A DNA stretch of 64,000 bases from an uncultured virus (IMG/VR IMGVR_UViG_3300042863_002514) (taxonomy: Duplodnaviria > Heunggongvirae > Uroviricota > Caudoviricetes). Where the stretch lies: positions 1 to 64,000 of the IMG/VR virus record IMGVR_UViG_3300042863_002514. One strand, given 5' to 3'. The notes beneath the pieces are model-generated. The model made no database searches. It saw nothing but the letters and a program-made list of their open reading frames with translations, and was not told the origin of the DNA. A program made the translations under genes and the position numbers. Of this stretch, positions 1-57,791 are shown in pieces (position 1 is the stretch's first letter; every line of letters begins with the position of its first letter).

Positions 1-271
1 CTCGGTTGGTGTTCCAACAAATACTTTTGTCTACATCTTGATAGTAGCCGTCAAACAATGCTCGCACAAGATTTTTTCTGCGACTCACTGGTACTTCTGT
101 TCGCATACCAGGACTGTCTACACTAGTTTCAATCACTCCTCGAACCATAGTGGCTAGTGGATCAGTAATACTGGCATGCATCACTGGATTCTGTCGCAAA
201 ATGCTGCTTAGCAAGGTGCTTCCGCTCCGTGGTAGCCCGCTTATCATGTGATAGTGTTTTTCAGTTGTCAT
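1..271 (-). CDS. Sulfotransferase (partial; runs off window start)
   Basis: Not in the ORF track; translated by hand as MTTEKHYHMISGLPRSGSTLLSSILRQNP... GLPRSGSTL is the 5'-PAPS-binding motif. ATG at 271 overlaps the end of the upstream ORF. Confidence 0.85.
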   Translation of the reverse strand, partial: MTTEKHYHMISGLPRSGSTLLSSILRQNPVMHASITDPLATMVRGVIETSVDSPGMRTEVPVSRRKNLVRALFDGYYQDVDKSICWNTNR

Positions 272-1616: not shown

Positions 1617-1619
1617 GGG

Positions 1620-2162
1620 TTACTTTACTACCACTAACTGAATGTAGACTTCGTCGATTATGTTACAGTGCTGTTCAAGATACTGCTCTACCTGTTCTTT
1701 AGGTTGCCCCACAAATTGATCTTTGTATTTTTCCATGGGTCGCAAGCTGTAGTCCACCACCTCAAAATCCACATTGTAGCGTTCGGCAAGCCTACTGGCA
1801 TGTGCACCTTGCTTGCGTGCCAATTGGTTGTATTTGCAGCCAAACAAGCGCAAGCCATCTACAGTGACTGGGCGTTTGTGCGTGGGGTCGCTGAAGAAGT
1901 CATCACTGCGGTGATGAGGTACATGAATATGTACTCTTGCCCCAGGTTTGCACACTCGATAAATTTCCTGCAGACAGTGAAAATACCCCTCGCCCAAGTG
2001 CTCTAACACATGAGTGGCTCTCAACACATCTACACTGTTGGTGGGAAATGGGAAAATGTCTTTTTCAAGGTCAAAACAAAAATCAGGATTGCAGTTGGGA
2101 TCGTAGTCACAGTGCACATATCCATCAATCCTGTCTTCACCTGCGCCAATATAGATTTTCAT
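1620..2162 (-). CDS. Class I SAM-dependent methyltransferase
   Basis: IGAG motif I, HVLEHL, EIYRVCKPG and DPTH motifs. Confidence 0.8.
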   Translation of the reverse strand: MKIYIGAGEDRIDGYVHCDYDPNCNPDFCFDLEKDIFPFPTNSVDVLRATHVLEHLGEGYFHCLQEIYRVCKPGARVHIHVPHHRSDDFFSDPTHKRPVTVDGLRLFGCKYNQLARKQGAHASRLAERYNVDFEVVDYSLRPMEKYKDQFVGQPKEQVEQYLEQHCNIIDEVYIQLVVVK

Positions 2163-3763
2163 TGTGATTTCTCCAAAAGCTGTCCATTCAACATCAGTGC
2201 GGCAACGCTGTCATTGGTTTCAAAAAATCTCAAACTCTGTTCAGGAGTTTCCATAATGGGCTCTCCAGCGCCATTCAAGCTGGTGTTGCACAGCACAGGA
2301 ACGCCTGTCAATTGATGGTAACAAGTGAGCAGTTGGTGCAACTGGGGATTTTGTTCAGCTGTAACAGTTTGCGGGCGTGCACTGTTGTCCACATGACACA
2401 CTGCTGGAATCAGTTGCGGCTTCAGCACTTGTGCAGTGTAAAGCATGTAGGGGCTCGAGGGTATTGGCAAGGAGAACCAATCGTGGGCGTGTTCCTGCAA
2501 CACCACAGGCGCAATAGGTCGAAACCATTCTCTGTTTTTCACTGCGAAATTTATTTTCTCACGCATGTGATAGCTTTGTGCATCAGCCAAAAGACTTCTG
2601 TGGCCCAGTGCTCGAGGCCCATATTCGCTTCTGCCCCAGTGCCAGGCCACTATAGCTCCTTGAGCCAGTAGCTCACAAACTCTAGTGTAGTCCACAATGG
2701 AGGTAGTGTTTTGAGAAGGTCCCAAATAACATAAATTCTGCGGTTGATAATTTTGCCTTGGTAAGTCAAACAAATGGTGCGCTACCCAAAGAGCGGCGCC
2801 CACCGCATTGCCGTCATCGCCACATGCAGGAAAGTGATGAATGCCCTCCCAAAGCTTGCTTTCAGCTATCCGGCTGTTCAAGATGCAGTTCAGCATGCTG
2901 CCACCACTGAGGCATAACTGTCGTTGCGGATAAATTTGGTGCAGTGTAGCTAGTGTTTCCAGAACACTCTTCTCCAGTAGCTCTTGAATAGTAGCAGCCA
3001 AATCACTGCTTTCCTTGTGTGTGAGCTCATGTGGGTGCTTGGCAATGAGTTTTTCCCACACATTGCTCCAGAACTTCCTGTATTCCAACTCAGCGTGTTC
3101 TTGAACACTGAACCATTGTTTTTTCAAAATCTCATCAAAAATAGGGCCAGTGAGTGATTTACCATAACTGCTGAGTCCCATGGTGGTGCCTGCCTTGCTG
3201 TAGGCTGGGGAGAAACCCAACAGCTCGGTGAAGATGGCATACCCAATACCTGAGATGAGTGTTGGGCACATTTGAGCTTGAAGCTTAGTGCCTTCACCAA
3301 AAAACACCATGTTGTTGTCGCCAAGTTCGCCAAAACTGCTGTCTAAGCTGAAACAAATGGCCTTATCAAAATTGCTAGTGTAGTAGGCACTGCTGGCATG
3401 CGCCAAATGATGTGGCAGCACATACACTGGTATTTTGTGGCTGCCGAGGAAAACACCTGTAAGCGTTCGCACGTCGTTGTTGTAGAGTGAGTAGGCAGTT
3501 CTCTCCACAGTGTTGCCATCACTGTCATATAGTGCCAAGACACCGTTGCTGTGGTTGGCCTTGTAGTCAGCCAATGCTATGCAACTGATGTCCTCAGGTT
3601 TAAGTGAAGCTTCCTGAAGTATAGCCTCAATTGTTTTGTTGGTTACACCAAAAGCCTTTTTTTCTCTAGTAACACGTTCTGTTCCCAAAGCTGCTGTTAA
3701 TCTGCCATTTTTCACAACTGCCACAGCACCGTCGTGAGAAAAATTCATTCCCAATATGTTCAT
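2159..3763 (-). CDS. O-carbamoyltransferase (NodU/CmcH/TobZ family)
   Basis: SHDG, HHLAHASSAY, LSGGSMLNC, GDDGNAVG, EYGPRALGHRS, KNREWFRPIAP, HVDNSARPQT and NTSLN motifs. Confidence 0.93.
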   Translation of the reverse strand: MNILGMNFSHDGAVAVVKNGRLTAALGTERVTREKKAFGVTNKTIEAILQEASLKPEDISCIALADYKANHSNGVLALYDSDGNTVERTAYSLYNNDVRTLTGVFLGSHKIPVYVLPHHLAHASSAYYTSNFDKAICFSLDSSFGELGDNNMVFFGEGTKLQAQMCPTLISGIGYAIFTELLGFSPAYSKAGTTMGLSSYGKSLTGPIFDEILKKQWFSVQEHAELEYRKFWSNVWEKLIAKHPHELTHKESSDLAATIQELLEKSVLETLATLHQIYPQRQLCLSGGSMLNCILNSRIAESKLWEGIHHFPACGDDGNAVGAALWVAHHLFDLPRQNYQPQNLCYLGPSQNTTSIVDYTRVCELLAQGAIVAWHWGRSEYGPRALGHRSLLADAQSYHMREKINFAVKNREWFRPIAPVVLQEHAHDWFSLPIPSSPYMLYTAQVLKPQLIPAVCHVDNSARPQTVTAEQNPQLHQLLTCYHQLTGVPVLCNTSLNGAGEPIMETPEQSLRFFETNDSVAALMLNGQLLEKSQ

Positions 3764-3766
3764 AAC

Positions 3767-4597
3767 TTAGTATAATAGCCATTTGTCCTGAGAAATCAAA
3801 TAATCACGTAAATGTAAATATCCCTTCATCATGGTGTGAAATTTCAATAATTGCCCTTGCATGGTGTTTTTGTTGTAGTCAATTTTTTCCAAATGTTCAA
3901 AGTAGAAGAGGCATTCTTGTTCGCTGAGATACAAAGGTGCGTTGTACCAACCATGAAATCCCAATGCTGAGGTGTAACCAGTGAGCACTTCTGCACAGAA
4001 TTTTAAGCTGATATGTGCTGGAGCGAATCGAATGTTGTAGGCAGTTTCAAGGTAATTCTGGTTGAGCAGTGTAATCACAGCATCCTCACTGATGAAGGGC
4101 GTGTTGTGATTGGGGGTGTAGTTCCGGGTTTTGATCTGGGGATCTTCAGCTAGGATTTTGAGGAGGCGACGGCTTCGCAAGCTTAATCCTCCGCCACAGG
4201 TGAACCAATCTGCGTTTTTAAATTCTTGGTAGTGGCCACTGGCTTGCAGGCTGCCTTTCATTGGCGGAAATTCAGGATGCGAGAGGCTGCCCACGTAATC
4301 ATATTCAAAATATTCATCAGTCCAGGCTTTGGGGTTTGTGGCTATGCCATCATAGTGTGCTATCAACACAAAATCAGTGTTGATGTAGCTGTGCATGCTC
4401 TTGAGGCAGAAATCACAGTATTCCAGCATGCCAAAGTTTTCTGGAATTGGATATTGTGTATGGGGTTGTGCAAGAGTTAATGGTTGATCTGACACCACAA
4501 TTGTGGTGGTGATCGGTGTAGAGGCAAGGGTTTTTTGAAGTGAGAAACTAGTGAGTTCGTGCTGGATGTTTGTGATGGTGAATAGAGTAAGGGTCAT
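3767..4597 (-). CDS. DUF5672-like protein (putative glycosyltransferase-like)
   Basis: HYDG...W..EY..YDYVG, GGGLSLRSRRLL, SED and FGFHG-like (LGFHG) motifs. Confidence 0.7.
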   Translation of the reverse strand: MTLTLFTITNIQHELTSFSLQKTLASTPITTTIVVSDQPLTLAQPHTQYPIPENFGMLEYCDFCLKSMHSYINTDFVLIAHYDGIATNPKAWTDEYFEYDYVGSLSHPEFPPMKGSLQASGHYQEFKNADWFTCGGGLSLRSRRLLKILAEDPQIKTRNYTPNHNTPFISEDAVITLLNQNYLETAYNIRFAPAHISLKFCAEVLTGYTSALGFHGWYNAPLYLSEQECLFYFEHLEKIDYNKNTMQGQLLKFHTMMKGYLHLRDYLISQDKWLLY

Positions 4598-4629
4598 CCA
4601 GTAAGCTTAGTTGGCGATTTGACTGTGTG

Positions 4630-5979
4630 CTAGTTATAGCACTGGAGAATTGCAGCCGTCATGGAACCGGCCGAAGTTTGACACCACGCGGTGCTGCTGC
4701 TTATTTCTCTCACCGGACTTGAGCGATTGGTAACAGTGTTATCTCCTAACACACCGCAATCGTTAAATCCCCAAGTCCAAAGTGTGCCATCTGTCTTTAT
4801 TGCAGTGTTGTGATTACTACCAGCTGAAGTTTGACACCAAGTGGTGGAATTGGTGATTTCTCTCCCTGGACTTGATAGTAGACCTGTGTTGTTGATTCCT
4901 AACTGCCCACACTGGTTAAATCCCCAACTCCAAAGTGTGCCATCTGTTTTTATTGCACTAGTCCAGGCGCTTGCCGAAGTTTGACACCAAGTGGTGCTGC
5001 TGCTTATTTCTCTCACCGGACTTGAGCGATTGGTAACAGTGTTATCTCCCAACTGCCCACACCTATTACACCCCCAACTCCAAAGTGTGCCATCTGTCTT
5101 TACTGCACTGATGGTAATACCTTTACCAGCTGATGTTTGACGCCAAGTGGTGGAACTGGTGATTTCCCTTACAGGACTTGAGCGATTGGTAACAGTGGTG
5201 TCTCCTAACATACCGCAATAGTTATTTCCCCAACTCCAAAGTGTACCATCTGTTTTTAATGCACTGGTGTGAAAACTACCACTTGATGTTTGACACCAAG
5301 TGGTTGAACTGGTGATTTCTCTCACTGGACTTGAGCGACTTGTAACAGTGTTATCTCCCAATCTGCCACACCCGTTATATCCCCAAGTCCAAAGTGTACC
5401 ATCTGTTTTTAATGCACTGTTGTGAGAATTACCAGCTGAAGTTTGACACCAAGTAGTTGAACTGGTGATTTCCCTTACAGGACTTGAGCGACTTGTAACA
5501 GTGTTGACTCCCAACTGACCCTGGACATTGTATCCCCAAGTCCACAGTGTGCTATCTGTTTTTATTGCACTAGTGAAGGCGCTGCCTGCCGAAGTTTGAC
5601 ACCAAGTGACAGAACTGGTGATTTCTCTCACTGGACTTGAGCGACTTGTAACAGTGTTGTCTCCTAACGGACCGCATATATTACGACCCCAAGTCCACAT
5701 CTGTCTAAGAGGCCAATCTCGACGTAAAACCCTACCATCCAATCCCACCCATGAAGTACAAGTGGATATTACAGGTACACAAATACTTTTGACAAAAACT
5801 GTTTGACCAAAACCTATGCACTTTGTAGCTAGGTCAGGTAAGTCTGATACTGTGTTAACAACAAAACTAATGCCAACTCCAGCAGCACTGGTTTGGGCTG
5901 CTAACAAAGGAAAACAAACACTGTCGCAAGCAGTTATTAATGAGTCAATACTAGTTTGGATTTCAGAGGGTGTTGGCAT
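4630..5979 (-). CDS. RCC1-repeat 7-bladed beta-propeller protein, N-terminal class C (copy 2)
   Basis: Seven ~51-aa repeats WxWGxNxxGxLGDNTVTxRSSPVREITSSTTWCQTSAG...KTDGTL; the N-terminus carries VPVIS...WVGLDGR. Confidence 0.9.
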   Translation of the reverse strand: MPTPSEIQTSIDSLITACDSVCFPLLAAQTSAAGVGISFVVNTVSDLPDLATKCIGFGQTVFVKSICVPVISTCTSWVGLDGRVLRRDWPLRQMWTWGRNICGPLGDNTVTSRSSPVREITSSVTWCQTSAGSAFTSAIKTDSTLWTWGYNVQGQLGVNTVTSRSSPVREITSSTTWCQTSAGNSHNSALKTDGTLWTWGYNGCGRLGDNTVTSRSSPVREITSSTTWCQTSSGSFHTSALKTDGTLWSWGNNYCGMLGDTTVTNRSSPVREITSSTTWRQTSAGKGITISAVKTDGTLWSWGCNRCGQLGDNTVTNRSSPVREISSSTTWCQTSASAWTSAIKTDGTLWSWGFNQCGQLGINNTGLLSSPGREITNSTTWCQTSAGSNHNTAIKTDGTLWTWGFNDCGVLGDNTVTNRSSPVREISSSTAWCQTSAGSMTAAILQCYN

Positions 5980-5992
5980 GTTCTGTCTCCAT

Positions 5993-7333
5993 TTACTTCA
6001 AGGCACTGGTGTGAAAACCACCAGCTGATGTTTGACGCCAAGTGGTGGAACTGGTGATTTCCCTTACAGGACTTGAGCGATTGGTAACAGTGGTGTCTCC
6101 CAACTGACCAGAGCCATTGCCGCCCCAAGTCCAAAGTGTGCCATATATTTTTAATGCACTGGTATGTATCCACCCGACAGAAGTTTGACACCAAGTGGTG
6201 GAACTGGTGATTTCCCTTACAGGACTTGAGCGATTGGTAACAGTGGTGTCTCCCAACTGACCAGAGCCATTGTATCCCCAAGTCCACAGGGAGCCATCTG
6301 TTTTTATTGCAGCGGTATGGATACCAGCTGAAGTTCGACACCAATTGGTGCTGTTGGTAATTTCTATGTTTGGATTTGAACTATTAGTGATGGTGTTGTT
6401 TCCCAGCTGGCCCGACCCGTTTTCTCCCCAAGTCCAAAGTGTGCCATTTGTTTTTATTGCAGCAGTATTCGTAGGGCCTGCTGAAGTTTGACACCAAGTG
6501 GTTGAACTGCTACTTTCTCTCACTGGACTTGACTTAGCCGTAACAGTGTTGTCTCCCAACTGACCCCAACCGTTCCAGCCCCAAGTCCAAAGTGTGCCAT
6601 CTGTTTTTAATGCACTGGTATGGCTGCCGCTGTTAAACCCGCCTGACGAAGTTTGACACCAAGTAGTTGAGCTGGTGATTTCTCTCACTGGGCTTGAGCG
6701 ACTAGTGACAGTGTTGTTTCCCAGCGTACCACAGGATGCATTTCCCCAACTCCAAAGTGTGCTATCTGTTTTCAATGCGCTTGTGTGGGCATTACCAGCT
6801 GAAGTTTGACACCAAGTGGTTGAGCTTGTGATTTCCCTTACAGGACTTGAGCGACTTGTAACAGTGTTATCTCCCAACTGACCAGAGACATTGTAGCCCC
6901 AAGTCCACAGTGTGCTATCTGTTTTTATTGCACTAGTCCTACCACCGTTGGCAGCGGCGGCTGAAGTTTGACACCAAGTGGTGGAACTGGTGATTTCTCT
7001 CACTGGACTTGAGCGACTAGTGACAGTGTTGTCTCCTAACCGACCACACCCGTTAAAGCCCCAACTCCAAATTTGGTTTAGGGGAGTAGTACCTATAACA
7101 CCCCATCCCGTAACTGTGGCCACATACAGTGAGGTATTCAACACAACATAATACAATTCACCCACATTTGCGGCGGCTGTTGGTAAATCAGTCACTGCGT
7201 TCACCACATACACCTTGCCGCTTCTCAACTGCTGCAATACCTTGCTGTAGTAAAACAAATCCTGCTCATTAGTAGTGCTGGATATTTTTTGCTGCATTGT
7301 GAACACTAGATTAGCTACATTGATGGTAGACAT
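5993..7333 (-). CDS. RCC1-repeat protein, N-terminal class B (copy 2)
   Basis: Seven RCC1 repeats. ATG at 7333 forms a TGATG overlap with the upstream stop. N-terminus QQKI...DLFYYSKVLQQLRSG. Confidence 0.9.
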   Translation of the reverse strand: MSTINVANLVFTMQQKISSTTNEQDLFYYSKVLQQLRSGKVYVVNAVTDLPTAAANVGELYYVVLNTSLYVATVTGWGVIGTTPLNQIWSWGFNGCGRLGDNTVTSRSSPVREITSSTTWCQTSAAAANGGRTSAIKTDSTLWTWGYNVSGQLGDNTVTSRSSPVREITSSTTWCQTSAGNAHTSALKTDSTLWSWGNASCGTLGNNTVTSRSSPVREITSSTTWCQTSSGGFNSGSHTSALKTDGTLWTWGWNGWGQLGDNTVTAKSSPVRESSSSTTWCQTSAGPTNTAAIKTNGTLWTWGENGSGQLGNNTITNSSNPNIEITNSTNWCRTSAGIHTAAIKTDGSLWTWGYNGSGQLGDTTVTNRSSPVREITSSTTWCQTSVGWIHTSALKIYGTLWTWGGNGSGQLGDTTVTNRSSPVREITSSTTWRQTSAGGFHTSALK

Positions 7334-8694
7334 CAAAGGAATCCTTTGCAGGTTAGGATTTTTAAGGCACTAATATGGGCAGATGCCGAAGTTTGAAACC
7401 AAGTAGTAAAACTGCTGATTTCTCTTACTGGACTTGAGCGACCAGTTGTTGTGTTGTCTCCCAACTGACCATACTGGTTCCGGCCCCAATTCCAAAGTGA
7501 ACCATCGGTTTTCAATGCACTGACTGTCTGATTTCTGGAAGTTGAGGTTCGACACCAATTATTGCTGCTGGTGATTTCTCGCCCTGGTACTCCAGTACAT
7601 GCGGTGGTGTTGTTTCCCAACACACCACAACTGCCGTACCCCCAGGTCCAAAGTGTGCCATCTGTTTTTACTGCGGTGCCGGCATTGGAACCTGAGGCAG
7701 TTTGACACCAAGAAGTACTAGAGAGGGCTTCTCTCACTGGACTTGATCTATTGGTTGAGGTTCCGTCTCCCAATGTACCGCAGAAATTGCGTCCCCAAAC
7801 CCACAATGTGGAGTCTGTTTTCACTGCACTGGATACTTGACTTCCAGGGGAAGTTTGGCACCAATTGGTGGAACTGGTGATTTCTCTCACTGGACTTGAC
7901 CGCGTATTGGTGGAGTTGTCTCCTAACTGACCCCAAATACCACATCCCCAAGTCCATAGTGAACCATCTGTTTTAACTGCACTAGCTATGCTCGCACCAA
8001 AGGCAATTTGGCACCAATTGCTGCTGCTGCTGATTTCTCTTACCGGACTTGAGCGACTTGTTGTTGTGTTATCGCCCAACTGCCCACAGAGATTGAGTCC
8101 CCACACCCAAAGTGTGCCATCAGTTTTTATTGCACTAGTGGGACTATTACTACCAGCCGCAGTTTGGCACCAATTACTGCTGCTGCTGATTTCTCTTACG
8201 GGACTTGAGCGACTTGTTGTTGTGTTGTCTCCTAACGAACCACCCGTGTTATAGCCCCAACTCCAAAGCGAGCCATCTGTTTTTATTGCACTGGTGTGAC
8301 CACCACCAGCCGAAGTTTGACACCAATTGCCGCTGTTGCTGATTTCTCTCACCGGACTTGACCGACAAGTAACAGTGTTGTCTCCCAACTGACCAAACCC
8401 ATTGGCTCCCCAAGAAAAAACGCTGGGTTCAACACGCTGCACGATGCTTCGAAAGTCTGTTGTCCAACAAATGCCATCACTGACGCGATACTGGCAAGTG
8501 TCTTGTAGATACACCATCCTTCCTTGATTCAAGGTCGCAGTGGGCAAAGCAGCGAGATTGGAAAAAGAAACCACTGCTTGAGTGTCGAGAATACATTGTG
8601 CACCCTGCAACTGACAACAGCTTAATGGAGTAAGCCCACCTGCTGCCAAACGTGAAGTAATTTGTGTTTGTAGTGTTTTTGCTGATGTGGTCAT
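7333..8694 (-). CDS. RCC1-repeat protein, N-terminal class A (copy 2)
   Basis: Seven RCC1 repeats. Likely ATG at 8694 (MTTSAK). N-terminus AALPTA..N.GR...YRVSDGICWTTDF. Confidence 0.9.
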   Translation of the reverse strand: MTTSAKTLQTQITSRLAAGGLTPLSCCQLQGAQCILDTQAVVSFSNLAALPTATLNQGRMVYLQDTCQYRVSDGICWTTDFRSIVQRVEPSVFSWGANGFGQLGDNTVTCRSSPVREISNSGNWCQTSAGGGHTSAIKTDGSLWSWGYNTGGSLGDNTTTSRSSPVREISSSSNWCQTAAGSNSPTSAIKTDGTLWVWGLNLCGQLGDNTTTSRSSPVREISSSSNWCQIAFGASIASAVKTDGSLWTWGCGIWGQLGDNSTNTRSSPVREITSSTNWCQTSPGSQVSSAVKTDSTLWVWGRNFCGTLGDGTSTNRSSPVREALSSTSWCQTASGSNAGTAVKTDGTLWTWGYGSCGVLGNNTTACTGVPGREITSSNNWCRTSTSRNQTVSALKTDGSLWNWGRNQYGQLGDNTTTGRSSPVREISSFTTWFQTSASAHISALKILTCKGFL

Positions 8695-8695
8695 G

Positions 8696-10069
8696 TTATT
8701 GCGGAACAACTAATATAGTTTTAATAGCACTAGTATCCACTTTACCAGCCGAAGTTTGACACCAAGTGGTGCTGCTGGTGATTTCTCTCACTGGACTTGA
8801 TCGATTGGTAATAGTGTTGTCTCCCAACTGACCACACAAATTGCCTCCCCAAGTCCAAAGTGTACCATCTGTTTTTAATGCACTGTTATTGACACAACCA
8901 GCCGAAGTTTGACACCAAGTGGTGCTGCTGGTGATTTCTCTCACTGGACTTGAGCGACCAGTTGTTGTGTTGTCTCCCAACTGACCACACCCGTTAGAGC
9001 CCCAACTCCAAAGAGCGCCATCTGTTTTTATTGCAGACGCGTGCCGATATCCAACTGATGTTTGACACCAAGTAGTGCTGCTGCTGGCTTCTCTCACTGG
9101 ACTTGACCGGTTTGTTGTTGTGTTGTCTCCCAACTGCAAACCTCCTCCCCAACTCCAAAGTGTGCCGTCTTTTTTTATAGCACTAGTGCTTATACCACCA
9201 GCTGAAGTTTGACACCAAGTGGTGCTGCTGGTGATTTCTCTTACAGGACTTGACTTACTTGTAGCAGTGTTGTCTCCCAATCGACCATAGCCGCCGGAGC
9301 CCCAACTCCAAAGTGTGCCATCTGTTTTTACTGCACTGGCAGTATAATTACTGGATGCTGTTTGACACCAAGTGGTGCTGCTGGTGATTTCTCTTACTGG
9401 GCTTGAGCGATTGGTAATAGTGTTGTCTCCCAACTGACCAGAGGCATTGCTGCCCCAACTCCAAAGTGAACCATCTGTTTTTATTGCATGTGTACTTCTG
9501 TTATCAGACGTAGTTTGACACCAAGTGGTGCTGCTGGTGATTTCTCTTACAGGACTTGACTTACTTGTAGCAGTGTTGTCTCCCAATCGACCGTAGTTGC
9601 CTCTGCCCCAACTCCAAAGTGTGCCATCTGTTTTTAATGCACTGGTATGATAAAAGCCAGCTGAAGTTTGACACCAAGTGGTGCTGCTGGTGATTTCTCT
9701 TACTGGGCTTGAGCGATTGGTAATAGTGTTGTCTCCCAATCGACCGTTGTTGTTGCCGCCCCAACTCCAAAGAGCTCCTCCCACTGTAGGAGTGAAATTC
9801 CTGCCATCAAAACCAATCCAACAGCCATTGAGGCTCACTACGGGCACAAGTGCATCGCACAAAAAAACAACATGCCCATTTGGTAACCCAGTTGAACAAC
9901 TGCAACCAAATAAGGTATCTATGCTGATGAAACTACTCCGATTACTGTCAACAGCGTCTTGTGATGCTGCTGCTAACACCACATCCATACTGCATGTGAG
10001 TGTGCCACTTGAGCATATTTCGCTCACCACAGAGTTGAGAAGTGTTGCACAGCAGAGGTTATTGGCCAT
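8696..10069 (-). CDS. RCC1-repeat protein, N-terminal class C (copy 1)
   Basis: Seven RCC1 repeats; Cys-rich N-terminus with VPVVSLNGCWIGFDGR. Confidence 0.9.
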   Translation of the reverse strand: MANNLCCATLLNSVVSEICSSGTLTCSMDVVLAAASQDAVDSNRSSFISIDTLFGCSCSTGLPNGHVVFLCDALVPVVSLNGCWIGFDGRNFTPTVGGALWSWGGNNNGRLGDNTITNRSSPVREITSSTTWCQTSAGFYHTSALKTDGTLWSWGRGNYGRLGDNTATSKSSPVREITSSTTWCQTTSDNRSTHAIKTDGSLWSWGSNASGQLGDNTITNRSSPVREITSSTTWCQTASSNYTASAVKTDGTLWSWGSGGYGRLGDNTATSKSSPVREITSSTTWCQTSAGGISTSAIKKDGTLWSWGGGLQLGDNTTTNRSSPVREASSSTTWCQTSVGYRHASAIKTDGALWSWGSNGCGQLGDNTTTGRSSPVREITSSTTWCQTSAGCVNNSALKTDGTLWTWGGNLCGQLGDNTITNRSSPVREITSSTTWCQTSAGKVDTSAIKTILVVPQ

Positions 10070-10080
10070 CTTGCGCTTCC

Positions 10081-10731
10081 TTAACCACCACTCACTAGAT
10101 TGGGCACGTTGCCTACCACTAACACTTCCAACTCCTCTATAGTGGTTGAGGCAGTGATTTCATCATCTTTGAGTTTTTCCCAGTCAAATGTGGCTTGAAT
10201 ATGCGCTGCACCAGCAGCGACGCATTGGCCTAATTCATCTTTTGTGAGAGTGAGCCAAGTTTCCGGAAACTTCCAATTCACTGTTTCATCAGTTGCCATA
10301 AGAGAGTATTTTTGCACAAAAATGTTCCTACCTTCTCTGCTAGTGTCAATAGTAACTTTTTTACCTTGTATCACAGTGTGTGTGCCACCCACTTCAGCAG
10401 TGTAGCGATTGGCTTGTGCCTCGTCTCGCAACTGAGCTTGTATCTCCCAAATTTGCTTGTATTTGATCTCAAATGTACCAACGGCAATTGCAGGATTAGT
10501 GAAATCCCAGAACGGACCATAATAGGTTTGTGTTCGAGAGTTATGATCGGGTATCACCAGCTGTGCTGTGGTCAAATAGGTGGCATCGTCTATCACAATA
10601 GGAACGGTTTCAGGGTCATTGCGCGGCAGCAATGCTGAAATCTTAAGGCGGTCCAGACCGCCTTCAAACATTGGCCTATTCCAACTCATTGGACCTACCA
10701 ACACTCTTTCGTTATGTACTAACACATACAT
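10081..10731 (-). CDS. DUF4376-domain protein (tail-fibre-associated/chaperone-like)
   Basis: C-terminal RYTAEVGG..IDTSREGR..VNWK..WLTLT..EL..HIQATFDWE pattern; SD (AAGGA) upstream. Confidence 0.7.
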   Translation of the reverse strand: MYVLVHNERVLVGPMSWNRPMFEGGLDRLKISALLPRNDPETVPIVIDDATYLTTAQLVIPDHNSRTQTYYGPFWDFTNPAIAVGTFEIKYKQIWEIQAQLRDEAQANRYTAEVGGTHTVIQGKKVTIDTSREGRNIFVQKYSLMATDETVNWKFPETWLTLTKDELGQCVAAGAAHIQATFDWEKLKDDEITASTTIEELEVLVVGNVPNLVSGG

Positions 10732-10748
10732 ATTTTATTCCTTTTATC

Positions 10749-12068
10749 TTAAATTGTTTGCCGGGCTACAGTAAACAGGCCCTGTCCTATGCTAACTTCA
10801 CTCCAGGAGCTTGAACTGGATATTTCACGTATAGGCAATAAACTTCTGATTGTAGAGTTGTTACCAAGTTGGCCACAATTGTTATTACCCCACATCCATA
10901 AAGTGCTTGCGGTTGTTAAAGCGCCACTTCTGCCAAAGCCGGCAGTGACTTGGCACCAATTGGTTGCACTTGTTGCTTCCTGAATTGGTGAGCTCCTGGA
11001 TACAGTAGAGTTGTCTCCTAAAGCACCACAAGCGTTGCAACCCCATGCCCATAGTGTGTTAGTTGTTTTTAAGGCAATAGAGTGAGCAAACCCAGCGGAA
11101 GTTTGACACCAAGTGGTGGAGCTACTTATCTCTTGAACGGGACTTGATACATTGCTAGTGCTATTATTGCCAAATTTGCCACACTCGTTTGACCCCCATC
11201 CCCATAAAGTACCACTTGTTTTGAGTGCTAGGGTACCGTAGAGGCCGGCAGAAACTTGACACCAATTGGTTGAACTGGAAATTTCTCGCACAGGACTAGA
11301 CCTATTAGACAGATTGCATGTGCCCAGTTGCCCAGTCCCATTATTTCCCCAACCCCAAAGGGTTCCATCTGTTTTTAGTGCAGCAGTATGCGAATATCCA
11401 GGTGAGGTTTGGCACCAAGTGGCACTGCTGCTGATTTCACGCACTGGGCTAGATTTGTTAACTATAGTGTTATCACCCACTTGGCCATATGTGTTCTTTC
11501 CCCATGCCCACAAACTGCCATCACTTTTAACACCAGACATTGTGTAAAAAGACGTACCTATTTGACACCAAGTTGTGCTGCTGGTGATTTCTCTTACAGG
11601 ACTTGACTTACTGGTAACAGTGTTGTCTCCCAACTGACCACATACGTTATTGCCCCAAAGCCATAAGGAACTATCCTGTTTTAACCCCATTGAATTTACC
11701 GAACCAGCTCTGAGTTGCAGCCAGTTGCAGGAGCTTGTAATCTCTCTGACAGGACTTGATTGATTGGTTGTATTACTTGTGCCCAATTGTCCACAACTGT
11801 TTGACCCCCACGCCCAACCTGTGTTAGACTGTGATACAATAGGAATCCAAAATACAGAATTACTGAAAACTACTCTTTGAGCGTCTTCAACCAAATACAA
11901 TTTACCATTGCTGGCTGATGCAGTAGGTAATAATTGAGAACAGGCTACAACAAACATAGCGCCTGTTCTCAGTTGTTGAATAGCCCGTGTATATGTGAGC
12001 AAATCTAGATTGTCGTTGCCTGCTGCGATTTTTTGGCTAAGGGCAAATTCAATTTGATTTAAGTTCAT
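10749..12068 (-). CDS. RCC1-repeat protein, N-terminal class B (copy 1)
   Basis: Seven more-diverged RCC1 repeats; N-terminus SQKI...DLLTYTRAIQQLRTG. Confidence 0.9.
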   Translation of the reverse strand: MNLNQIEFALSQKIAAGNDNLDLLTYTRAIQQLRTGAMFVVACSQLLPTASASNGKLYLVEDAQRVVFSNSVFWIPIVSQSNTGWAWGSNSCGQLGTSNTTNQSSPVREITSSCNWLQLRAGSVNSMGLKQDSSLWLWGNNVCGQLGDNTVTSKSSPVREITSSTTWCQIGTSFYTMSGVKSDGSLWAWGKNTYGQVGDNTIVNKSSPVREISSSATWCQTSPGYSHTAALKTDGTLWGWGNNGTGQLGTCNLSNRSSPVREISSSTNWCQVSAGLYGTLALKTSGTLWGWGSNECGKFGNNSTSNVSSPVQEISSSTTWCQTSAGFAHSIALKTTNTLWAWGCNACGALGDNSTVSRSSPIQEATSATNWCQVTAGFGRSGALTTASTLWMWGNNNCGQLGNNSTIRSLLPIREISSSSSWSEVSIGQGLFTVARQTI

Positions 12069-13414
12069 AGTGCTACAAATCCTGAAATTTTACCTTGAAT
12101 GGCCATTGTTTGCCTTGTACTGCTAGTTACACAACTCCACGACGTGGCTGATGTTATCTCTCTCACAGGACTGGAAACTGATGTAACTGTGTTGTTCCCC
12201 AACGCGCCACATGATGCATTTCCCCAGGTCCACAATGTGCCATCTGTTTTTAACGCCGCGGTATGCGCGCATCCACCAGATACTTGACACCAAGTTGTTG
12301 ATGATGAAATTTCTTGTATAGGACTGCTCCGGCTGGTTGCAGTATTATTTCCCAGCTCTCCACATGTATTTAAACCCCATGCCCACAGAGTGCCATCGGT
12401 TTTTATAGCATTTGAATGATACTTGCCAGGCCCAAATGTGCACCAATTTGTAGAGCTGGAAACTTCTCGAACTGGGCTGCTGGCATTTGAGGTAGAGTTG
12501 TTACCGAGAACGCCATATCCACCTGAGCCCCAGCTCCAAAGTGTATTGTCTTTTTTCAACGCAACTGCTAGGTTGTAACCGTTTTGTATTCTGCACCAGG
12601 AGGTTCCGCTTGTTATTTCTCGCACTGGTGAACTGAAGTTAGTTGTGTTGTTGGTTCCCAGTACTCCACATGTGTTGACTCCCCAGGTCCACAGACTGCC
12701 ATCAGACTTGACAGCAGCAGAGTGTCGCAGCCCTCCACTGCTGATTGAACACCAATTTGTACTTGATGATACCTCGCGGATTGGAGAACTGCGGGTTGTT
12801 TTGGTGCCATCGCCCAAATTACCGCAAAAGTTGTCGCCCCATGCCCACAGTGTGCTATCACATTTTAAAGCCAAAAGATGGAACGCAAATGACCCTACAC
12901 TTGTCCAGGTTGAAGAACTACTTATTTCACGAACTGGACTACTTTGGTTAGCTGTTGCATTATTGCCCAGTGCACCACAATTGTTGTAACCCCAAGTCCA
13001 TAGTGAAAGGTCTGATTTTATTCCTGCTGATGTTGTATTGCTAGTGACAGTAACCCAATTGCAGCTTGAGCTTATTTCTCGAACAGGTGAACTCTGGGAA
13101 GTTGTTGTATTATTGCCCAAACCTCCACAGAGGTTCCAACCCCACCCAAACACACATGCGCCTGTCCAATTTGTATTGAAGTCATTGGTCCATTGGGTGC
13201 CATCACTGTAGCGATAGTCGCCAATGTCCGTTATCCAAATAAACCTGCCTGTATTGTCACATGCTGTTGGCAATGCTGCACAATTTGCTACACAATAGAT
13301 CCCATTCAAAGCCGCTTGAATACCTGCCAACTGAGCAGTTTGCAGAACATCTTGATTGGCCAAGACAATGCATGCGTTGGCTTGTGTGATGAGTTTGCCA
13401 GCAGCCACAGACAT
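12065..13414 (-). CDS. RCC1-repeat protein, N-terminal class A (copy 1)
   Basis: Seven RCC1 repeats; N-terminus AALPTACDNTGR...YRYSDGTQWTNDF. Confidence 0.9.
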   Translation of the reverse strand: MSVAAGKLITQANACIVLANQDVLQTAQLAGIQAALNGIYCVANCAALPTACDNTGRFIWITDIGDYRYSDGTQWTNDFNTNWTGACVFGWGWNLCGGLGNNTTTSQSSPVREISSSCNWVTVTSNTTSAGIKSDLSLWTWGYNNCGALGNNATANQSSPVREISSSSTWTSVGSFAFHLLALKCDSTLWAWGDNFCGNLGDGTKTTRSSPIREVSSSTNWCSISSGGLRHSAAVKSDGSLWTWGVNTCGVLGTNNTTNFSSPVREITSGTSWCRIQNGYNLAVALKKDNTLWSWGSGGYGVLGNNSTSNASSPVREVSSSTNWCTFGPGKYHSNAIKTDGTLWAWGLNTCGELGNNTATSRSSPIQEISSSTTWCQVSGGCAHTAALKTDGTLWTWGNASCGALGNNTVTSVSSPVREITSATSWSCVTSSTRQTMAIQGKISGFVAL

Positions 13415-13418
13415 GTGA

Positions 13419-13676
13419 TTAAGTCAGTGCCAACAAAGCTAGTGTTCGAGCAGTGTTGTCTTGGCCACCAAAACTGCCCCAAACTGTGCCGTCGTAGCCT
13501 TCAAAACTGGCTTGCGTAGTATTGTAACGGATTTGTCCTGTTGCTGCTGTTGGTCTTTCACCATCTGTGCCCACAGGCAATTTTAGTGCAGATGTGCCGC
13601 TGAAATTGGCATACCCAGTAATAGTCAAATTTTGGTTATCGGCGATGACTGTAACGCCTGATATTTTTATGGCCAT
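13419..13676 (-). CDS. Small virion fibre/adaptor protein
   Basis: The LPVGT..ERP...GQIRYNT....FEGYDG..W motif recurs in the N-terminus of the 36989 protein. SD AAAGGAG upstream. Confidence 0.7.
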   Translation of the reverse strand: MAIKISGVTVIADNQNLTITGYANFSGTSALKLPVGTDGERPTAATGQIRYNTTQASFEGYDGTVWGSFGGQDNTARTLALLALT

Positions 13677-13709: not shown

Positions 13710-13717
13710 TATTTATA
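13710..13717 (-). promoter_or_regulatory. T4-type late promoter TATAAATA upstream of the RCC1 gene array
   Basis: Exact TATAAATA, 33 nt upstream of ATG 13676. Confidence 0.7.
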
Positions 13718-13735: not shown

Positions 13736-14668
13736 TTAACTTTGATTTAGTCCCAAGTGTTTTTTCAATACTTCAATACTTTCGGCCTGCTCTTGCAATG
13801 CCTTCAACAACAGCGGTATCAACTGAATATATGCCACAGTTTTCCCTGACGCGGTTGTACTCACAAGAGATGGTATAACTTGCTCTACTTCTTGAGCCAA
13901 TAAACCAAAACTGTGTTTGCTGGCATGCTTCCAGTCAAAACTAACGGGATTGAGTTCCTTGAGAATAGCCCAACTGTCGGTAATTGTTGAGATGTTTGTT
14001 TTGAACGCAGCATCACTGATGCTGTTGAAGTCAACAGCAGCCACTTCACCAGTGCCAGGATTATAGGTGAATGCTGTTGCAGTGCTGCGTATCCTAGGAG
14101 TAGTGCTAGAGCCAGCAGTGTCCACAAAAACCGGATAAAATGTTGAATTTGTTGTGGTATTTGTAGCAGTAATTGAGGTTGAGCTGCCGGCTGTTCCGCT
14201 CCATCCACTAGTGCCAGAAAATCCACTTGTGCCCGCACCGCTAAATCCGCTCCATCCACTTGTTCCGCTCCAGCTTTTGAATACACAGCTTATTCCTGCT
14301 CGGGGGTTGATTTCAAATGGTTGATTGAGAGCTCAAATTCAAAAATTTCTCTCTTGAGGCAGAAACACAACATCATTGTTGAGCAAAATTATGCGTTGAC
14401 CTTTGGCTAGCTTGATAGCTAGATTGTTGGCACCACTTTATCCCAAGGGTTGATCACTCCATACAATTTGACAGTGATCAGCCATGCCAACACTGACAAA
14501 TTGCTGTTGTAGATCTTGTAGATAGTCACATTTGTTGTCTGTGCAACCATTGGCGCTGACTATCAATTCAACGTCAGTCATTTTGTTATGAGAGCAAAGG
14601 CTTGTAGTGCAAGGTTCTAACAAGTCATTGCAGTGGTTGTAGGTTGGTATGATAATAGAGTATTTGAA
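13736..14668 (-). pseudogene. Decayed in-frame fusion: GT2 N-terminus joined to SG-repeat fibre C-terminus with peptidase-S74-type chaperone domain
   Basis: One frame reads KYSIIIPTYNHC...QPLG*SGANN...ERNF*I*ALNQPFEINPRAGISCVFKSWSGTSGWSG...[28 protein letters not shown]. Stops are at 14438-40, 14339-41 and 14333-35, and the Met is lost. The parts are paralogous to 49015 (N-term) and 44986 (C-term). Confidence 0.85.
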
Positions 14669-14729
14669 TTGTAGAGTCACAACAAAATTATACAAACTTT
14701 TTGATAGCACTACAATTTAGAGATTGAAA

Positions 14730-15233
14730 CTACACGTTCATCTCCGGAAGGAATCCCGGAGGATAAGGATTCACTGATTCCACAGGAACAATGTGTAAAC
14801 TAGGCCAAATAATATTGAAAGGATCTTGTTGTGTTTGAGGTATATCAGCTAGTTCTTGAATATAGCGTTCGAGAGTGAGGATATCATCAATTGGAGTGAG
14901 ACCCAATCTTAAGTATCGATTACAGCGTTCAACTCTCCATGCAACCGACTGAATAAGTATATCTCTCTGTTGTCGCACATCTTTCCATTTTGTCTGCTTC
15001 AGCATTTCAAGTTCTTCCAGGGTATATTCGGTCACTATCCACGCACCTGTGATATCATTCCACAACAATTTCTCATTGTCCTGTAGTTGAGGAGGATCAC
15101 TTACAGGCACATATCCAGCATCATCAATTTCTTCTGGAGTGAAAGTGCTAGGATCAGTTCGTGTTCTACCATCTAATAGTCTTATCCTGAATGGCAACGA
15201 CTGAGGCCATTGGTTTTTATAGGAATACAGCAT
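14730..15233 (-). CDS. Phage tail (fibre) assembly chaperone-like protein
   Basis: Start reassigned to ATG 15233 (SD AAGGAG). C-terminal W..VRQQRD.LI....W...YIQELADIPQ....PFNIIWP motif. Confidence 0.75.
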   Translation of the reverse strand: MLYSYKNQWPQSLPFRIRLLDGRTRTDPSTFTPEEIDDAGYVPVSDPPQLQDNEKLLWNDITGAWIVTEYTLEELEMLKQTKWKDVRQQRDILIQSVAWRVERCNRYLRLGLTPIDDILTLERYIQELADIPQTQQDPFNIIWPSLHIVPVESVNPYPPGFLPEMNV

Positions 15234-15413
15234 ATTATGTCTCCTTAAGTTCCTGAGAATCTTGGCATAGTAGTATTGATGAGACCTCCGAGATAGAGTT
15301 TTTGTTGTTGTTATCAAGTGAGATACTATAAGCACTATTTTGCAATAGTGAATGATTGCAATAGTAATTGACTGCGACAGTAGTGATTGTCTTGACAAAT
15401 ATCATCTTGTAAT

Positions 15414-15587
15414 CTACCACTTGCCCAATGGGCATTTGGCGAAATGGAACTTCCATTTCGCTAGCATGATGCATCCGCATTCCTGGCAAGTCTTCATTAT
15501 AGTAAATCTCGAACATGATTGGCATGAATCCTTCCGTTCATGGTATTTTGAAGGGTCATCCAGCAGCTTGAGGTTTGTCAACAACAT
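15414..15587 (-). CDS. Small Cys-rich protein, 57 aa (DUF6171-like, CxxC...CxxCGC...CPxGKW)
   Basis: Below the ORF-track cutoff: MLLTNLKLLDDPSKYHERKDSCQSCSRFTIMKTCQECGCIMLAKWKFHFAKCPLGKW. The ATG lies 1 nt after the upstream stop. Confidence 0.75.
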   Translation of the reverse strand: MLLTNLKLLDDPSKYHERKDSCQSCSRFTIMKTCQECGCIMLAKWKFHFAKCPLGKW

Positions 15588-15588
15588 C

Positions 15589-16464
15589 TTATAGATTCCC
15601 AGTCTGGGTTGTCGGGAACAGTCTAGTGGTTCCTGGCCATATTATGCGAACGGCCCCATTCCCGCCACTAACGCTACCGCCGCCGTCACTCTGAAGCCCA
15701 CCGCCGCCATACAATGCACCCACACCTGTACCTGTGTAACCCTTGCCATTTTCGCCACCACTGCCGCCGCCGCCGCCTGCACTGCTACTCGCTCCCCCAT
15801 TACCCCCTGCTGTTCCATTTGCTCCTTGTCCCAGTATTCCTACGCCGCCCCCAGCTGTTGCATAATAAGAGCTACCTCCACCGCCGCCACCGCCGGAACC
15901 AGCGTTGCCAGGTCCTGATGCGCCACTTGTAACGCCCGCAGCACCACCATTACCTGTGTAGCCACCTGCGCCACCACCACCAGAATACGCGCCAGTATTT
16001 GAAGCACCACCATTACCTCCGCCGTCTCCAACATAAGTTCCACCTGCACCTGCATAAGTTCCACCTCCACCTTGTACGGTTAAAGCGGATATGAAATAGC
16101 TAGCAGCACCATTTGCACCAGCACCGCCACCTGCACCAACAACCACAGTATATAATGTGCCTGGCGTAACACTGATGTTATTTTTATAACCCAAACCACC
16201 GCCACCGCCACCTAGATATGTGGTCGCTGTGGCACCTTTTCCGCCCCCTCCCCCAACGCATACTACACTCACGCTATTTACTCCCGCAGGGCATGTCCAT
16301 GTGTATGTACCGGGAGTGGTATATGCCTGTTGTCCAAGGGAAAGAATTACGGGTGGCCAACGATTATGCTTTACTGCCAAAAAATTTTCTCTCAAAGACC
16401 ATACTCCTGAAGCTACTGAAGTAGTTGGATCATTTGGTTTGCCTATGATATTGCCTTTGCCCAT
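15589..16464 (-). CDS. Glycine-rich-domain virion protein
   Basis: YTTPGTYTWTCPAGVNSVSVVCVGGGGG start motif, poly-Gly tracts and a closing GGNGAVRIIW. Confidence 0.75.
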   Translation of the reverse strand: MGKGNIIGKPNDPTTSVASGVWSLRENFLAVKHNRWPPVILSLGQQAYTTPGTYTWTCPAGVNSVSVVCVGGGGGKGATATTYLGGGGGGLGYKNNISVTPGTLYTVVVGAGGGAGANGAASYFISALTVQGGGGTYAGAGGTYVGDGGGNGGASNTGAYSGGGGAGGYTGNGGAAGVTSGASGPGNAGSGGGGGGGSSYYATAGGGVGILGQGANGTAGGNGGASSSAGGGGGSGGENGKGYTGTGVGALYGGGGLQSDGGGSVSGGNGAVRIIWPGTTRLFPTTQTGNL

Positions 16465-16483
16465 TTATACGGTCTTTTATCTG

Positions 16484-17515
16484 CTAGAGTTTTTCAATGA
16501 GTACGCTGCCATTTCCGGTGGTGTTTACCCCGGCTGTGTTGGATTGGTTGCTGCCGTTGTTGATGCTGCCACCGCCACCTCCTGGTCCCAAGGCAGGACA
16601 GGTACACGCCCCCACACCGCCAGCACCGCCGCCACTGTAGCCACCACCACCACCACCTAGGTAGCTGCTGGCACCGCCTCCACCGCCAAACCCGCCGTTA
16701 GCCGCCGTGCCACCGTATTGCACACCTCCGGTCCCCCCCGTGCCGCCATTGAGAAAACTGTTACCGCCGCTTGAAGCGCCTTCACCGCCGCCGCCAGCTG
16801 CGCCGTTGCCGCTATAGCCACCACCGCCACCACCAACTGAAACACATCCATTGGTGGCACCACCGCCAGAACCAAGTGTGCCTCCACCTCCTCCGGTATC
16901 TCCCCCGGCATTGCCAGAGGTGAGTATGCTGGCATCCTTGTTGGCCCATGTGCCTGCCGAACCTCCGCCGCCTCCGCCAGCTATGATCAGTATGGTGTTG
17001 TCCTGTTTAGTCACGAAGCTGCTGCCGCCGCCGCCGCCCTTGCTACCACCGCACGCATTATTACCGGTGACACCCTGTTGTCCTACCAATATCTTGAGTT
17101 TTTCGCCCTGGGTAAGGGAGAAGGTGCCTATCATGCGTGCACCGGCACCAACACCGGTAGCACCGCTGCCTCCCCTAGCACCTATTGCTGTTATCCGGTA
17201 TGACGCTGTCAAAGGAACCGTCCATAGCTGTATCCCGGATGTTACGCTGAAATATGCTGTGTTGGTGTTCCATCCTGACGGTGTAGGCGTGCCGGTCATC
17301 CCACCCTGTGCCTGTGCCAGTGTTGGTCCTGAACTGCCGCTAGCAGTGCCAGGTGTAAATGTAGCTGACGTAAATCCGTAGAGTGCTTGCCCAGGCCAGG
17401 TATTCCCGTATTTTGCATCAGCTTGTGCTTCTGAGCTCCAGACTCCTTTGGCCGTAGTTGATGTAGGATTATTTTCAATCCCAATAACACCGCCGTTATC
17501 AAAGTTAGTATTCAC
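16484..17515 (-). CDS. Glycine-rich protein with ALK/LTK-type glycine-rich domain
   Basis: GIQLWTVP.T..YRI.A.GA.GG...G.F.L..GE.L.ILVGQQG...GGGGSSFV...GGFGGGG...GGGGYSGG...GNGSV.I. It shares an N-terminal GxxIG..N.PT...A.GVWS motif with 15589. Confidence 0.75.
   Translation of the reverse strand: MNTNFDNGGVIGIENNPTSTTAKGVWSSEAQADAKYGNTWPGQALYGFTSATFTPGTASGSSGPTLAQAQGGMTGTPTPSGWNTNTAYFSVTSGIQLWTVPLTASYRITAIGARGGSGATGVGAGARMIGTFSLTQGEKLKILVGQQGVTGNNACGGSKGGGGGSSFVTKQDNTILIIAGGGGGGSAGTWANKDASILTSGNAGGDTGGGGGTLGSGGGATNGCVSVGGGGGGYSGNGAAGGGGEGASSGGNSFLNGGTGGTGGVQYGGTAANGGFGGGGGASSYLGGGGGGYSGGGAGGVGACTCPALGPGGGGGSINNGSNQSNTAGVNTTGNGSVLIEKL

Positions 17516-44982: not shown

Positions 44983-48978
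<3,996 letters not shown>

Positions 48979-55547: not shown

Positions 55548-55548
<1 letters not shown>
55123..55548 (-). CDS. Small virion protein with GFRDNF anchor and a domain shared with 20260
   Basis: NFPVPGIDQSSKGFRDNF; AHNLGQKIVLVQV...PDSITL...W. Confidence 0.75.

Positions 55549-57791
<2,243 letters not shown>

Follow-up and report, generated by a model that had tools for sequence, protein, structure and literature searches.

The first 64 kb of a 119-kb uncultured virus record (IMG/VR IMGVR_UViG_3300042863_002514), hereafter the window, carry six consecutive minus-strand RCC1 genes, and this array raises the question of how stretches of DNA can be identical between genes, silent sites included, next to surface loops that differ from blade to blade. 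Each gene (g6 to g1 in reading order) encodes an N-terminal domain of about 85–97 residues followed by seven RCC1 repeats of about 51 residues, all above the Pfam cut-off, giving the 42 blades that the original prediction, made from the sequence alone, had counted. That prediction regarded the array as a library of binders, in which recombination reshuffles two hypervariable loops per blade under diversifying selection in the manner of antibodies or variable lymphocyte receptors (VLRs). The reading favoured here, which we consider probable, is that the six paralogues evolve in concert through ordinary homologous recombination, that the loops are left out of this exchange, and that the resulting variable face may serve in host binding.

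Concerted evolution of the six propellers

The three identical tracts on which the original prediction was built are exact, synonymous sites included (81/81, 80/80, and 74/74), and the second of them (9207-9286 = 9513-9592) extends to a maximal 81 nt; a further tract of 82 nt was absent from that prediction (Table 1). Among exact repeats of at least 30 nt at positions 4500-13500, 44 of 46 fall among g1–g4, and g3 (7333-8694) is involved in just two. The same codon is used at 0.61–0.77 of same-residue sites among g1–g4, where genome codon usage predicts 0.345; the corresponding values of 0.36–0.46 for g5 and 0.31–0.36 for g6 indicate that the two upstream genes stand apart and that g6 is not homogenised at silent sites. 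Codon sharing therefore agrees with the claim that the four downstream genes use one scaffold from which the upstream two have diverged, but the identity is patchy and does not run along the whole scaffold, and g3 takes little part in it.

The N-termini form three homologous classes, arranged in the order C-B-DUF4376-A-C-B-A (two sets of three), with a DUF4376 gene between g5 and g4. The order is the same in the related phage locus L039 and is C-B-B-DUF4376-A-C-A in L073. In a comparison that used 17 genes from these three phages (the eighteenth, an L039 gene with an uncertain start, was omitted), the N-terminal tree sorted by class with two label changes, the minimum, and the propeller tree sorted by genome with the same minimum; none of 200 shuffles was as low in either case. 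The six propellers thus evolve in concert.

This behaviour is not special to the window and is instead family-wide; the isolated Synechococcus phage S-SRM01 shows it as well. A fixed-geometry filter was passed by 26 loci (25 others and the window) of 42 with enough blades, and in nearly all of the 26 codon sharing is higher within the locus than to other loci, reaching 0.93. The mean variability profile of the other loci matches that of the window (Spearman 0.90), which is a typical rather than an extreme member of the phage RCC1 arrays. Genes of this type are common among uncultured freshwater jumbo phages, with at least 8000 database relatives. Some phages fuse 14–22 blades per gene (L010, L020, L059, and L063), and L020, L059, and L063 still have three genes.

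Identical tracts could also arise from assembly collapse, and two blade-deleted proteins, P0142 (g3 without one of its blades) and P0005 (g4 without two, the joint lying within the 81-nt tract), show how blades can be skipped here by short-read assembly or by real recombination; either protein may be real or misassembled, and no such joint occurs among the 15 shown of 47 joints. However, all 15 listed contig ends of run X1 lie on 30-mers repeated in the array (background, 8.4% of positions), as expected if the reads hold each tract twice, and the eight listed X1 pieces contain no differences. X1 may be the window's own sample, and its graph was built separately from reads. Moreover, six other IMG/VR assemblies match the window exactly across 17,371 bases; across 20,648 bases the same six differ at 3 bases (window 155-194), which lie close to the contig end and well away from the array. 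A seventh assembly shows no difference over 10,619 bases, a stretch that includes g5 and g6 but none of the other RCC1 genes. These consensus assemblies probably come from one population. Given the contig ends, the six agreeing assemblies, and the allele-specific tracts described below, assembly collapse was rejected and appears hardly credible.

A second allele set shows that the exchange is ongoing, as had been predicted from the repeats. In this set, P0095 differs from g1 at 5 residues, P0121 from g2 at 31, P0002 from g4 at 21, and P0127 from g5 at 10. Outside this set, P0128, a further g5 allele, has 82 differences. Replacements in g1, g2, g4, and g5 decoded from contigs of runs X15, X16, and X22 agree with P0095, P0121, P0002, and P0127 in 19 of 19 cases, and the four would appear to belong to one strain; the contigs of the three runs also differ among themselves. 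All three of the originally noted tracts are broken in the second set (5125-5205 at the protein level; 9206-9286 and 9360-9433 in P0002), which has its own motif, SVTD, in blades 1, 2, and 4 of g2, and the window's blades lack this motif. The broken tracts and the new motif show conversion since the alleles split, which homogenises the scaffold and carries a third variable window with it, while loops 1 and 2 change in place. Nine of 20 replacement codons alter two or three bases together, and dense patches that mix silent and multi-base changes look as imported tracts would (Table 1). For the second-allele patch at g2 blade 4 (third window), the window's own array offers no template within 4 mismatches; for the patch at blade 3, it offers one only at 3 mismatches. 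Blade order is kept in all four allele pairs, with seven blades in each of those alleles.

Variable windows and probable selection on the loops

Entropy peaks at blade columns 6, 8, and 9 (loop 1) and 40, 41, and 46 (loop 2), with lower peaks at columns 11, 17, and 19. All of the loop sequences quoted in the original prediction are present and both loops are variable, but the count of two hypervariable windows was too low: a third, at columns 14–20 (the GDNTVTSR stretch), had been taken as scaffold. The AlphaFold model of g2 (146-row alignment; predicted local distance difference test score 93.2) consists of a helical hairpin, a small beta domain, and a seven-bladed propeller, and its closest Foldseek matches are UVR8 and HERC2 RLD2 (E 1e-33, target TM 0.87–0.90). 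In the secondary structure of the model, loop 1 and columns 14–20 form the C-D loop and loop 2 forms the A-B turn. Because these elements share a side in a four-strand meander, all three windows are predicted to lie on one face, consistent with the single variable face originally proposed. Columns 8, 19, and 41 align with UVR8 residues that we take to be D96, D107, and R286 in absolute numbering, with 11-residue spacing in the alignment. Cysteine is frequent at columns 9 (24/42) and 34 (34/42) and in the N-termini.

The tract survey separates the third window from the two named loops. None of 104 exact tracts of at least 24 nt spans loop 1 or the core of loop 2, and eight span window 3. All 42 loop-1 peptides are unique, and changed loops have no twin in another blade of either allele set (0/7 and 0/8), compared with 8 of 13 and 7 of 13 changed window-3 versions that do; near-twin first loops occur at the chance level (11 vs. 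11.5 expected). The reshuffling of the two named loops is therefore not supported. Between alleles, 50 of 57 propeller differences fall inside the three windows: 10/111 in loop 1, 27/196 in columns 14–20 (a window defined after inspecting the differences), 13/175 in loop 2, and 6/919 in the scaffold. P0095 has no change from g1 within the two named loops, and P0128 repeats the excess in window 3 (20/49 vs. 20/229). In the loops of g4, at window 8890-8893 and 9440-9446, what aligns as a one-base loss and a nearby one-base gain distinguishes the alleles, a local frame slip that rewrites two codons.

Silent divergence (dS) is 3–4 times higher in the loops (2.25 and 1.58) than in the scaffold (0.56), and replacement rates at columns 6, 8, 11, 40, 41, and 46 are about 5–45 times the scaffold silent rate. 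The ratio of replacement to silent rates (dN/dS) is 1.4–3.6 in g1–g4 for the four most variable columns, a set picked afterwards. When tuned to the scaffold, a toy neutral model that includes a mismatch barrier yielded a replacement divergence (pN) of 0.25–0.56 at the four most variable columns, and it fell short of the observed 0.72 in 36 of 36 runs. It is likely, judging from these rates, that selection opposes the loss of loop differences, and diversifying selection is suggested. Allelic change is concentrated in the loops, in line with the original claim of diversifying selection, but no corrected site test was passed.

Mechanism, alternatives, and relation to known systems

In the favoured reading, ordinary homologous recombination, which suffices as machinery in a phage that encodes a RecA/UvsX-like protein, copies patches of about 30–80 bases between blades and genes, sometimes taking several blades in register. 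The copying keeps a genome-specific scaffold and continues between co-occurring alleles; window 3 travels inside the copied patches, and the two named loops are excluded and remain unique to each blade. Selection may keep the loop differences, new loop residues may come from mutation in place and from exchange with other strains rather than from shuffling within the array, and the variable face may bind a variable target.

Several results weigh against this reading. Without an outgroup the direction of each conversion event is not fixed, and a Sawyer-type permutation on silent sites alone is not significant (p 0.18); only the version with all sites is significant, and there the clustering of the loops inflates the result. 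There are three near-twin second loops, more than expected by chance (p 0.03), as well as the blade-deleted P0005 and P0142, and blades 1–3 of g1 and g2 pair in register in the blade tree despite their different N-terminal classes, which suggests that long tracts carried loops at times in the past. Over the whole of the variable windows dN/dS is below 1, at about 0.4–0.6 (0.41, 0.47); the site test, which uses one tree and hence a poor model under conversion, is positive only at column 8 (p 0.007, uncorrected, 47 columns), with p 0.07 at column 40; and one untuned neutral run came near the observed value (pN 0.69) with a less homogenised scaffold. Finally, the allelic DNA comparison covers the 40 displayed of 167 places, on contigs of 4 of 24 runs.

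The register pairing, the copying of window 3 between blades (the eight tracts and the twins), the joints of P0005 and P0142 inside repeats, and the mutual differences of X15, X16, and X22 speak for an antibody- or VLR-like library that actively reshuffles loop cassettes in a hypervariable population. Such a library is nevertheless improbable, as no tract spans loop 1 or the loop 2 core, changed loops have no twins, near-twin first loops are at chance, blade order is constant, and the six consensus assemblies are identical over 17,371 bases. Silent donor cassettes were not found, since 42 of 42 RCC1 matches in the records G000, G001, and G002, which are incomplete, lie inside the six open frames; a VLR-like silent-cassette system was accordingly rejected, the two named loops also not having been moved. 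A second alternative dispenses with selection for diversity: unconstrained RCC1 surface loops would diverge, and their divergence would block copying and mimic hypervariability. Consistent with this, variation falls on the same columns in all 25 other phage loci, loop residues specific to a blade are not conserved among distant orthologues (0.14–0.18 either way), dN/dS over the variable windows is below 1, and the barrier model moves in the observed direction. The elevated replacement rates and the shortfall of all tuned neutral runs, albeit in a toy model, argue against it, and we regard it as unlikely.

The function of the propellers may be considered separately. The neighbourhood of fibre genes, the late-promoter-like site, and the variable face point to a role in host binding, and on the evidence of gene content we lean slightly towards proteins that are expressed late and carried on the virion, which would bind the host surface and be attached to a fibre by their N-terminal domain. 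The same recombination could instead serve another job, with the proteins acting as tight-binding intracellular or periplasmic anti-defence inhibitors resembling BLIP-II, which has the RCC1 fold, or ordering DNA in the head, as proposed for the eleven RCC1-like proteins of the jumbo coliphage phAPEC6 in the portion of that paper drawn on here, which gives them no known prokaryotic function (PMC7247149). This is a lesser but real possibility; against it stand the conserved position between tail-fibre genes and DUF4376 in both this phage and cyanophage S-SRM01, the late-promoter-like site (a weak point), and the annotation of some RCC1-fold matches in the viral library as tail fibres. If the proteins do bind hosts, a large influence on host range would have been overlooked, and the propellers would offer a natural scaffold for binders; S-SRM01, being isolated, makes the idea testable.

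Among 33 non-redundant loci, cut at 13–21 kb and picked by likeness, 25 have exactly three RCC1 genes and 3 have six, and the window's phage, L039, and L073 have two genes of each N-terminal class. These three-or-six counts (28/33) and balanced classes hint at a heterotrimer. Tentatively, the array may therefore encode a widespread, undescribed type of adhesin of freshwater T4-like jumbo phages, in which A, B, and C propellers would cap a trimeric fibre, DUF4376 would act as adaptor or chaperone, and two sets would be present here; the 21 blades per set would be kept compatible and ready for recombination, and three windows per blade would form a large face tuned by the strain pool. A predicted complex of the g3, g2, and g1 N-terminal domains scored 0.02 against a mark of 0.32, which is no evidence either way.

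As a mechanism, concerted evolution in which one face diverges has a precedent in the fungal HNWD repeats. In the cited part of the work on Podospora, WD40 repeats of the HNWD genes (het-d, het-e) are near-identical within and between genes and group by genome, and variable codons on the interaction face are paired around a conserved one, at positions 7/9 and 25/27 (Paoletti et al., 2007, PMC1805685). As far as that part describes them, the two systems agree in that propeller repeats follow the genome and the flanking domain follows orthology, in exchange within and between genes, and in paired variable columns on a face (here 6/8 and 40/41). The present array differs in belonging to a phage, in using RCC1 instead of WD40 repeats without a NACHT domain (Pfam detects RCC1 families only), in having seven blades in the alleles seen, in that whole repeats were not seen redistributed with their loops, and in that positive selection is weakly shown here. 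Here the evolution of an RCC1 array is visible between co-occurring alleles, with the scaffold copied and one face changing.

The propellers have the seven-blade fold of UVR8, HERC2 RLD2, RCC1, and BLIP-II, and the variable columns coincide with residues (D96, D107, and R286) that, in the section of the UVR8 paper cited, form salt bridges at the dimer interface (PMC5091643). Unlike known RCC1-like domains, the blades are near-identical to each other, the N-terminus adds a hairpin and a beta domain, and there is no known ligand. The gene context favours a role other than the Ran exchange or chromatin binding of eukaryotic RCC1. The T-even tail-fibre adhesin gp38, with shown receptor binding, alternates conserved motifs with hypervariable segments in the passages cited (Trojet et al., 2011, PMC3157838); the propellers proposed here as host-binding proteins would work in a similar way. 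The two agree in their tail-fibre and chaperone neighbourhood and in that sequence is exchanged with a wider phage pool at or close to conserved motifs, but they are unrelated in sequence and fold, and gp38 is a single gene, whereas the present locus has six mutually homogenising paralogues whose binding is putative. Phage phAPEC6 likewise has several RCC1 paralogues in a large myophage. The same layout occurs in S-SRM01 (MW015081), with three RCC1 proteins, the order fibre-RCC1-DUF4376-RCC1...RCC1, its own scaffold motif, and exact repeats of up to 46 nt. Repeat homogenisation is not treated in the available parts of the phAPEC6 and S-SRM01 papers, and the word "RCC1" does not occur in the latter paper. 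No published account was found that joins phage RCC1, tail fibres, and gene conversion, or RCC1 and freshwater huge phages; most subscription journals and supplements were outside the scope of this search, and absence from print is not established.

In diversity-generating retroelements, too, a fixed binding scaffold encoded in a phage tail locus carries the variable residues. Here there is no template/variable pair, changes are not adenine-specific (all kinds of base change occur in X16 and X22, with no adenine bias), and no match to the reverse transcriptase family PF00078 was found in G000–G003, of which the longest record is 77% complete, in keeping with the original statement that no reverse transcriptase is involved. 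A diversity-generating retroelement was rejected on these grounds.

The locus and its surroundings

The record from which the window was taken has a CheckV completeness of 34%, and records containing the same stretch reach 329 kb (77% complete). The longer record G001 encodes a gp23-type capsid protein (E 7e-96) and the RecA/UvsX-like protein (RecA match, E 2e-16), and the source is a T4-like jumbo phage. All 24 listed runs that carry the stretch are lake metagenomes, and no RNA data set is listed among them.

Table 1. Positions in the window of the RCC1 array, its neighbours, identical tracts, and allelic patches.
Feature	Position	Strand	Details
g1, RCC1 seven-blade propeller, class A, 449 aa	4630..5979	-	PF00415/PF25390 above cut-off; allele P0095
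g2, RCC1 propeller, class B, 446 aa from ATG	5993..7333	-	Pfam match; AlphaFold model; allele P0121
g3, RCC1 propeller, class C, 453 aa from ATG	7333..8694	-	Pfam match; P0142 lacks one blade
g4, RCC1 propeller, class A, 457 aa, most homogenised gene	8696..10069	-	Pfam match; allele P0002; P0005
DUF4376 protein, conserved neighbour of such arrays	10081..10731	-	PF14301; PHROG 10508 "tail fiber protein"
g5, RCC1 propeller, class B, 439 aa, weakly homogenised	10749..12068	-	Pfam match; alleles P0127, P0128
g6, RCC1 propeller, class C, 449 aa, silent sites not homogenised	12065..13414	-	Pfam match; codon sharing
85-aa fibre-type protein heading the operon	13419..13676	-	PHROG 6005 virion structural protein, E 2e-15
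TATAAATA, late-promoter-like site	13710..13717	-	34 bases ahead of the 85-aa gene; position suggestive
Tail-fibre-type neighbours: S74 chaperone domain, tail assembly chaperone, two glycine-rich proteins	13736..17515	-	Pfam, PHROG
81-nt tract, g1 blade 4 = g2 blade 7	5125-5205 = 6020-6100		81/81; columns 13-39; exact match
82-nt tract, g2 blade 7 = g2 blade 6	6038-6119 = 6191-6272		exact match
81-nt tract, g4 blade 4 = g4 blade 2	9206-9286 = 9512-9592		maximal; columns 10-36; exact match
74-nt tract, g4 blade 3 = g4 blade 1	9360-9433 = 9666-9739		74/74; columns 12-36; exact match
Dense allelic patch, g2 blade 4, third window	6533..6553		9 bases in 21; runs X16, X22
Dense allelic patch, g2 blade 3, third window	6701..6718		8 bases in 18; allelic contigs
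Allelic patch across g5 blade 1	11781..11824		silent and replacement changes together; runs X15, X16, X22

The site upstream of the operon, TATAAATA, is what we take to be the T4-type late promoter consensus; its count is at the chance level (2 matches in the window vs. 1.41 expected), and only its position is suggestive. Upstream of the array there are fibre-type, S74 chaperone, tail chaperone, glycine-rich, and collagen genes. The window also has three long collagen-repeat fibre genes (17889-19901, 44986-48963, and 55548-57785), one with an S74 chaperone domain. Relatives of the DUF4376 protein have RCC1 genes alongside in other phages, and a metagenome scan with DUF4376 returned only distant loci (13/13 at 39–52%). 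A Pfam search of the six N-termini returned nothing; the atlas matches of the g2 N-terminus are all below 0.9 (Mtd_N 0.86, 43% of members; PTL_trimer 0.85) and are unconfirmed leads only.

Downstream of the array, the genes encode DUF5672, carbamoyltransferase, and methyltransferase proteins. At window 261-4597, and at equivalent places in many phages (L073, L039, L011, L012, L081, and L101), the array is followed by TPR-like, methyltransferase, sulfotransferase-like, and glycosyltransferase-like genes, which possibly act as a module in modifying fibres or the host surface.

Two further observations come from G000, outside the window. It contains a second array of paralogues, nine in tandem (G000:C1:79966-85870) and two further members (117500-118935), of 199–273 aa, with a near-constant C-terminal end and a varying number of leucine-rich-repeat-like units, as judged by eye; one member had no Pfam match of note. 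Among its 18 tRNAs there is one with the amber-reading anticodon CTA (G000:C1:70921-70994), labelled Pyl by ARAGORN.

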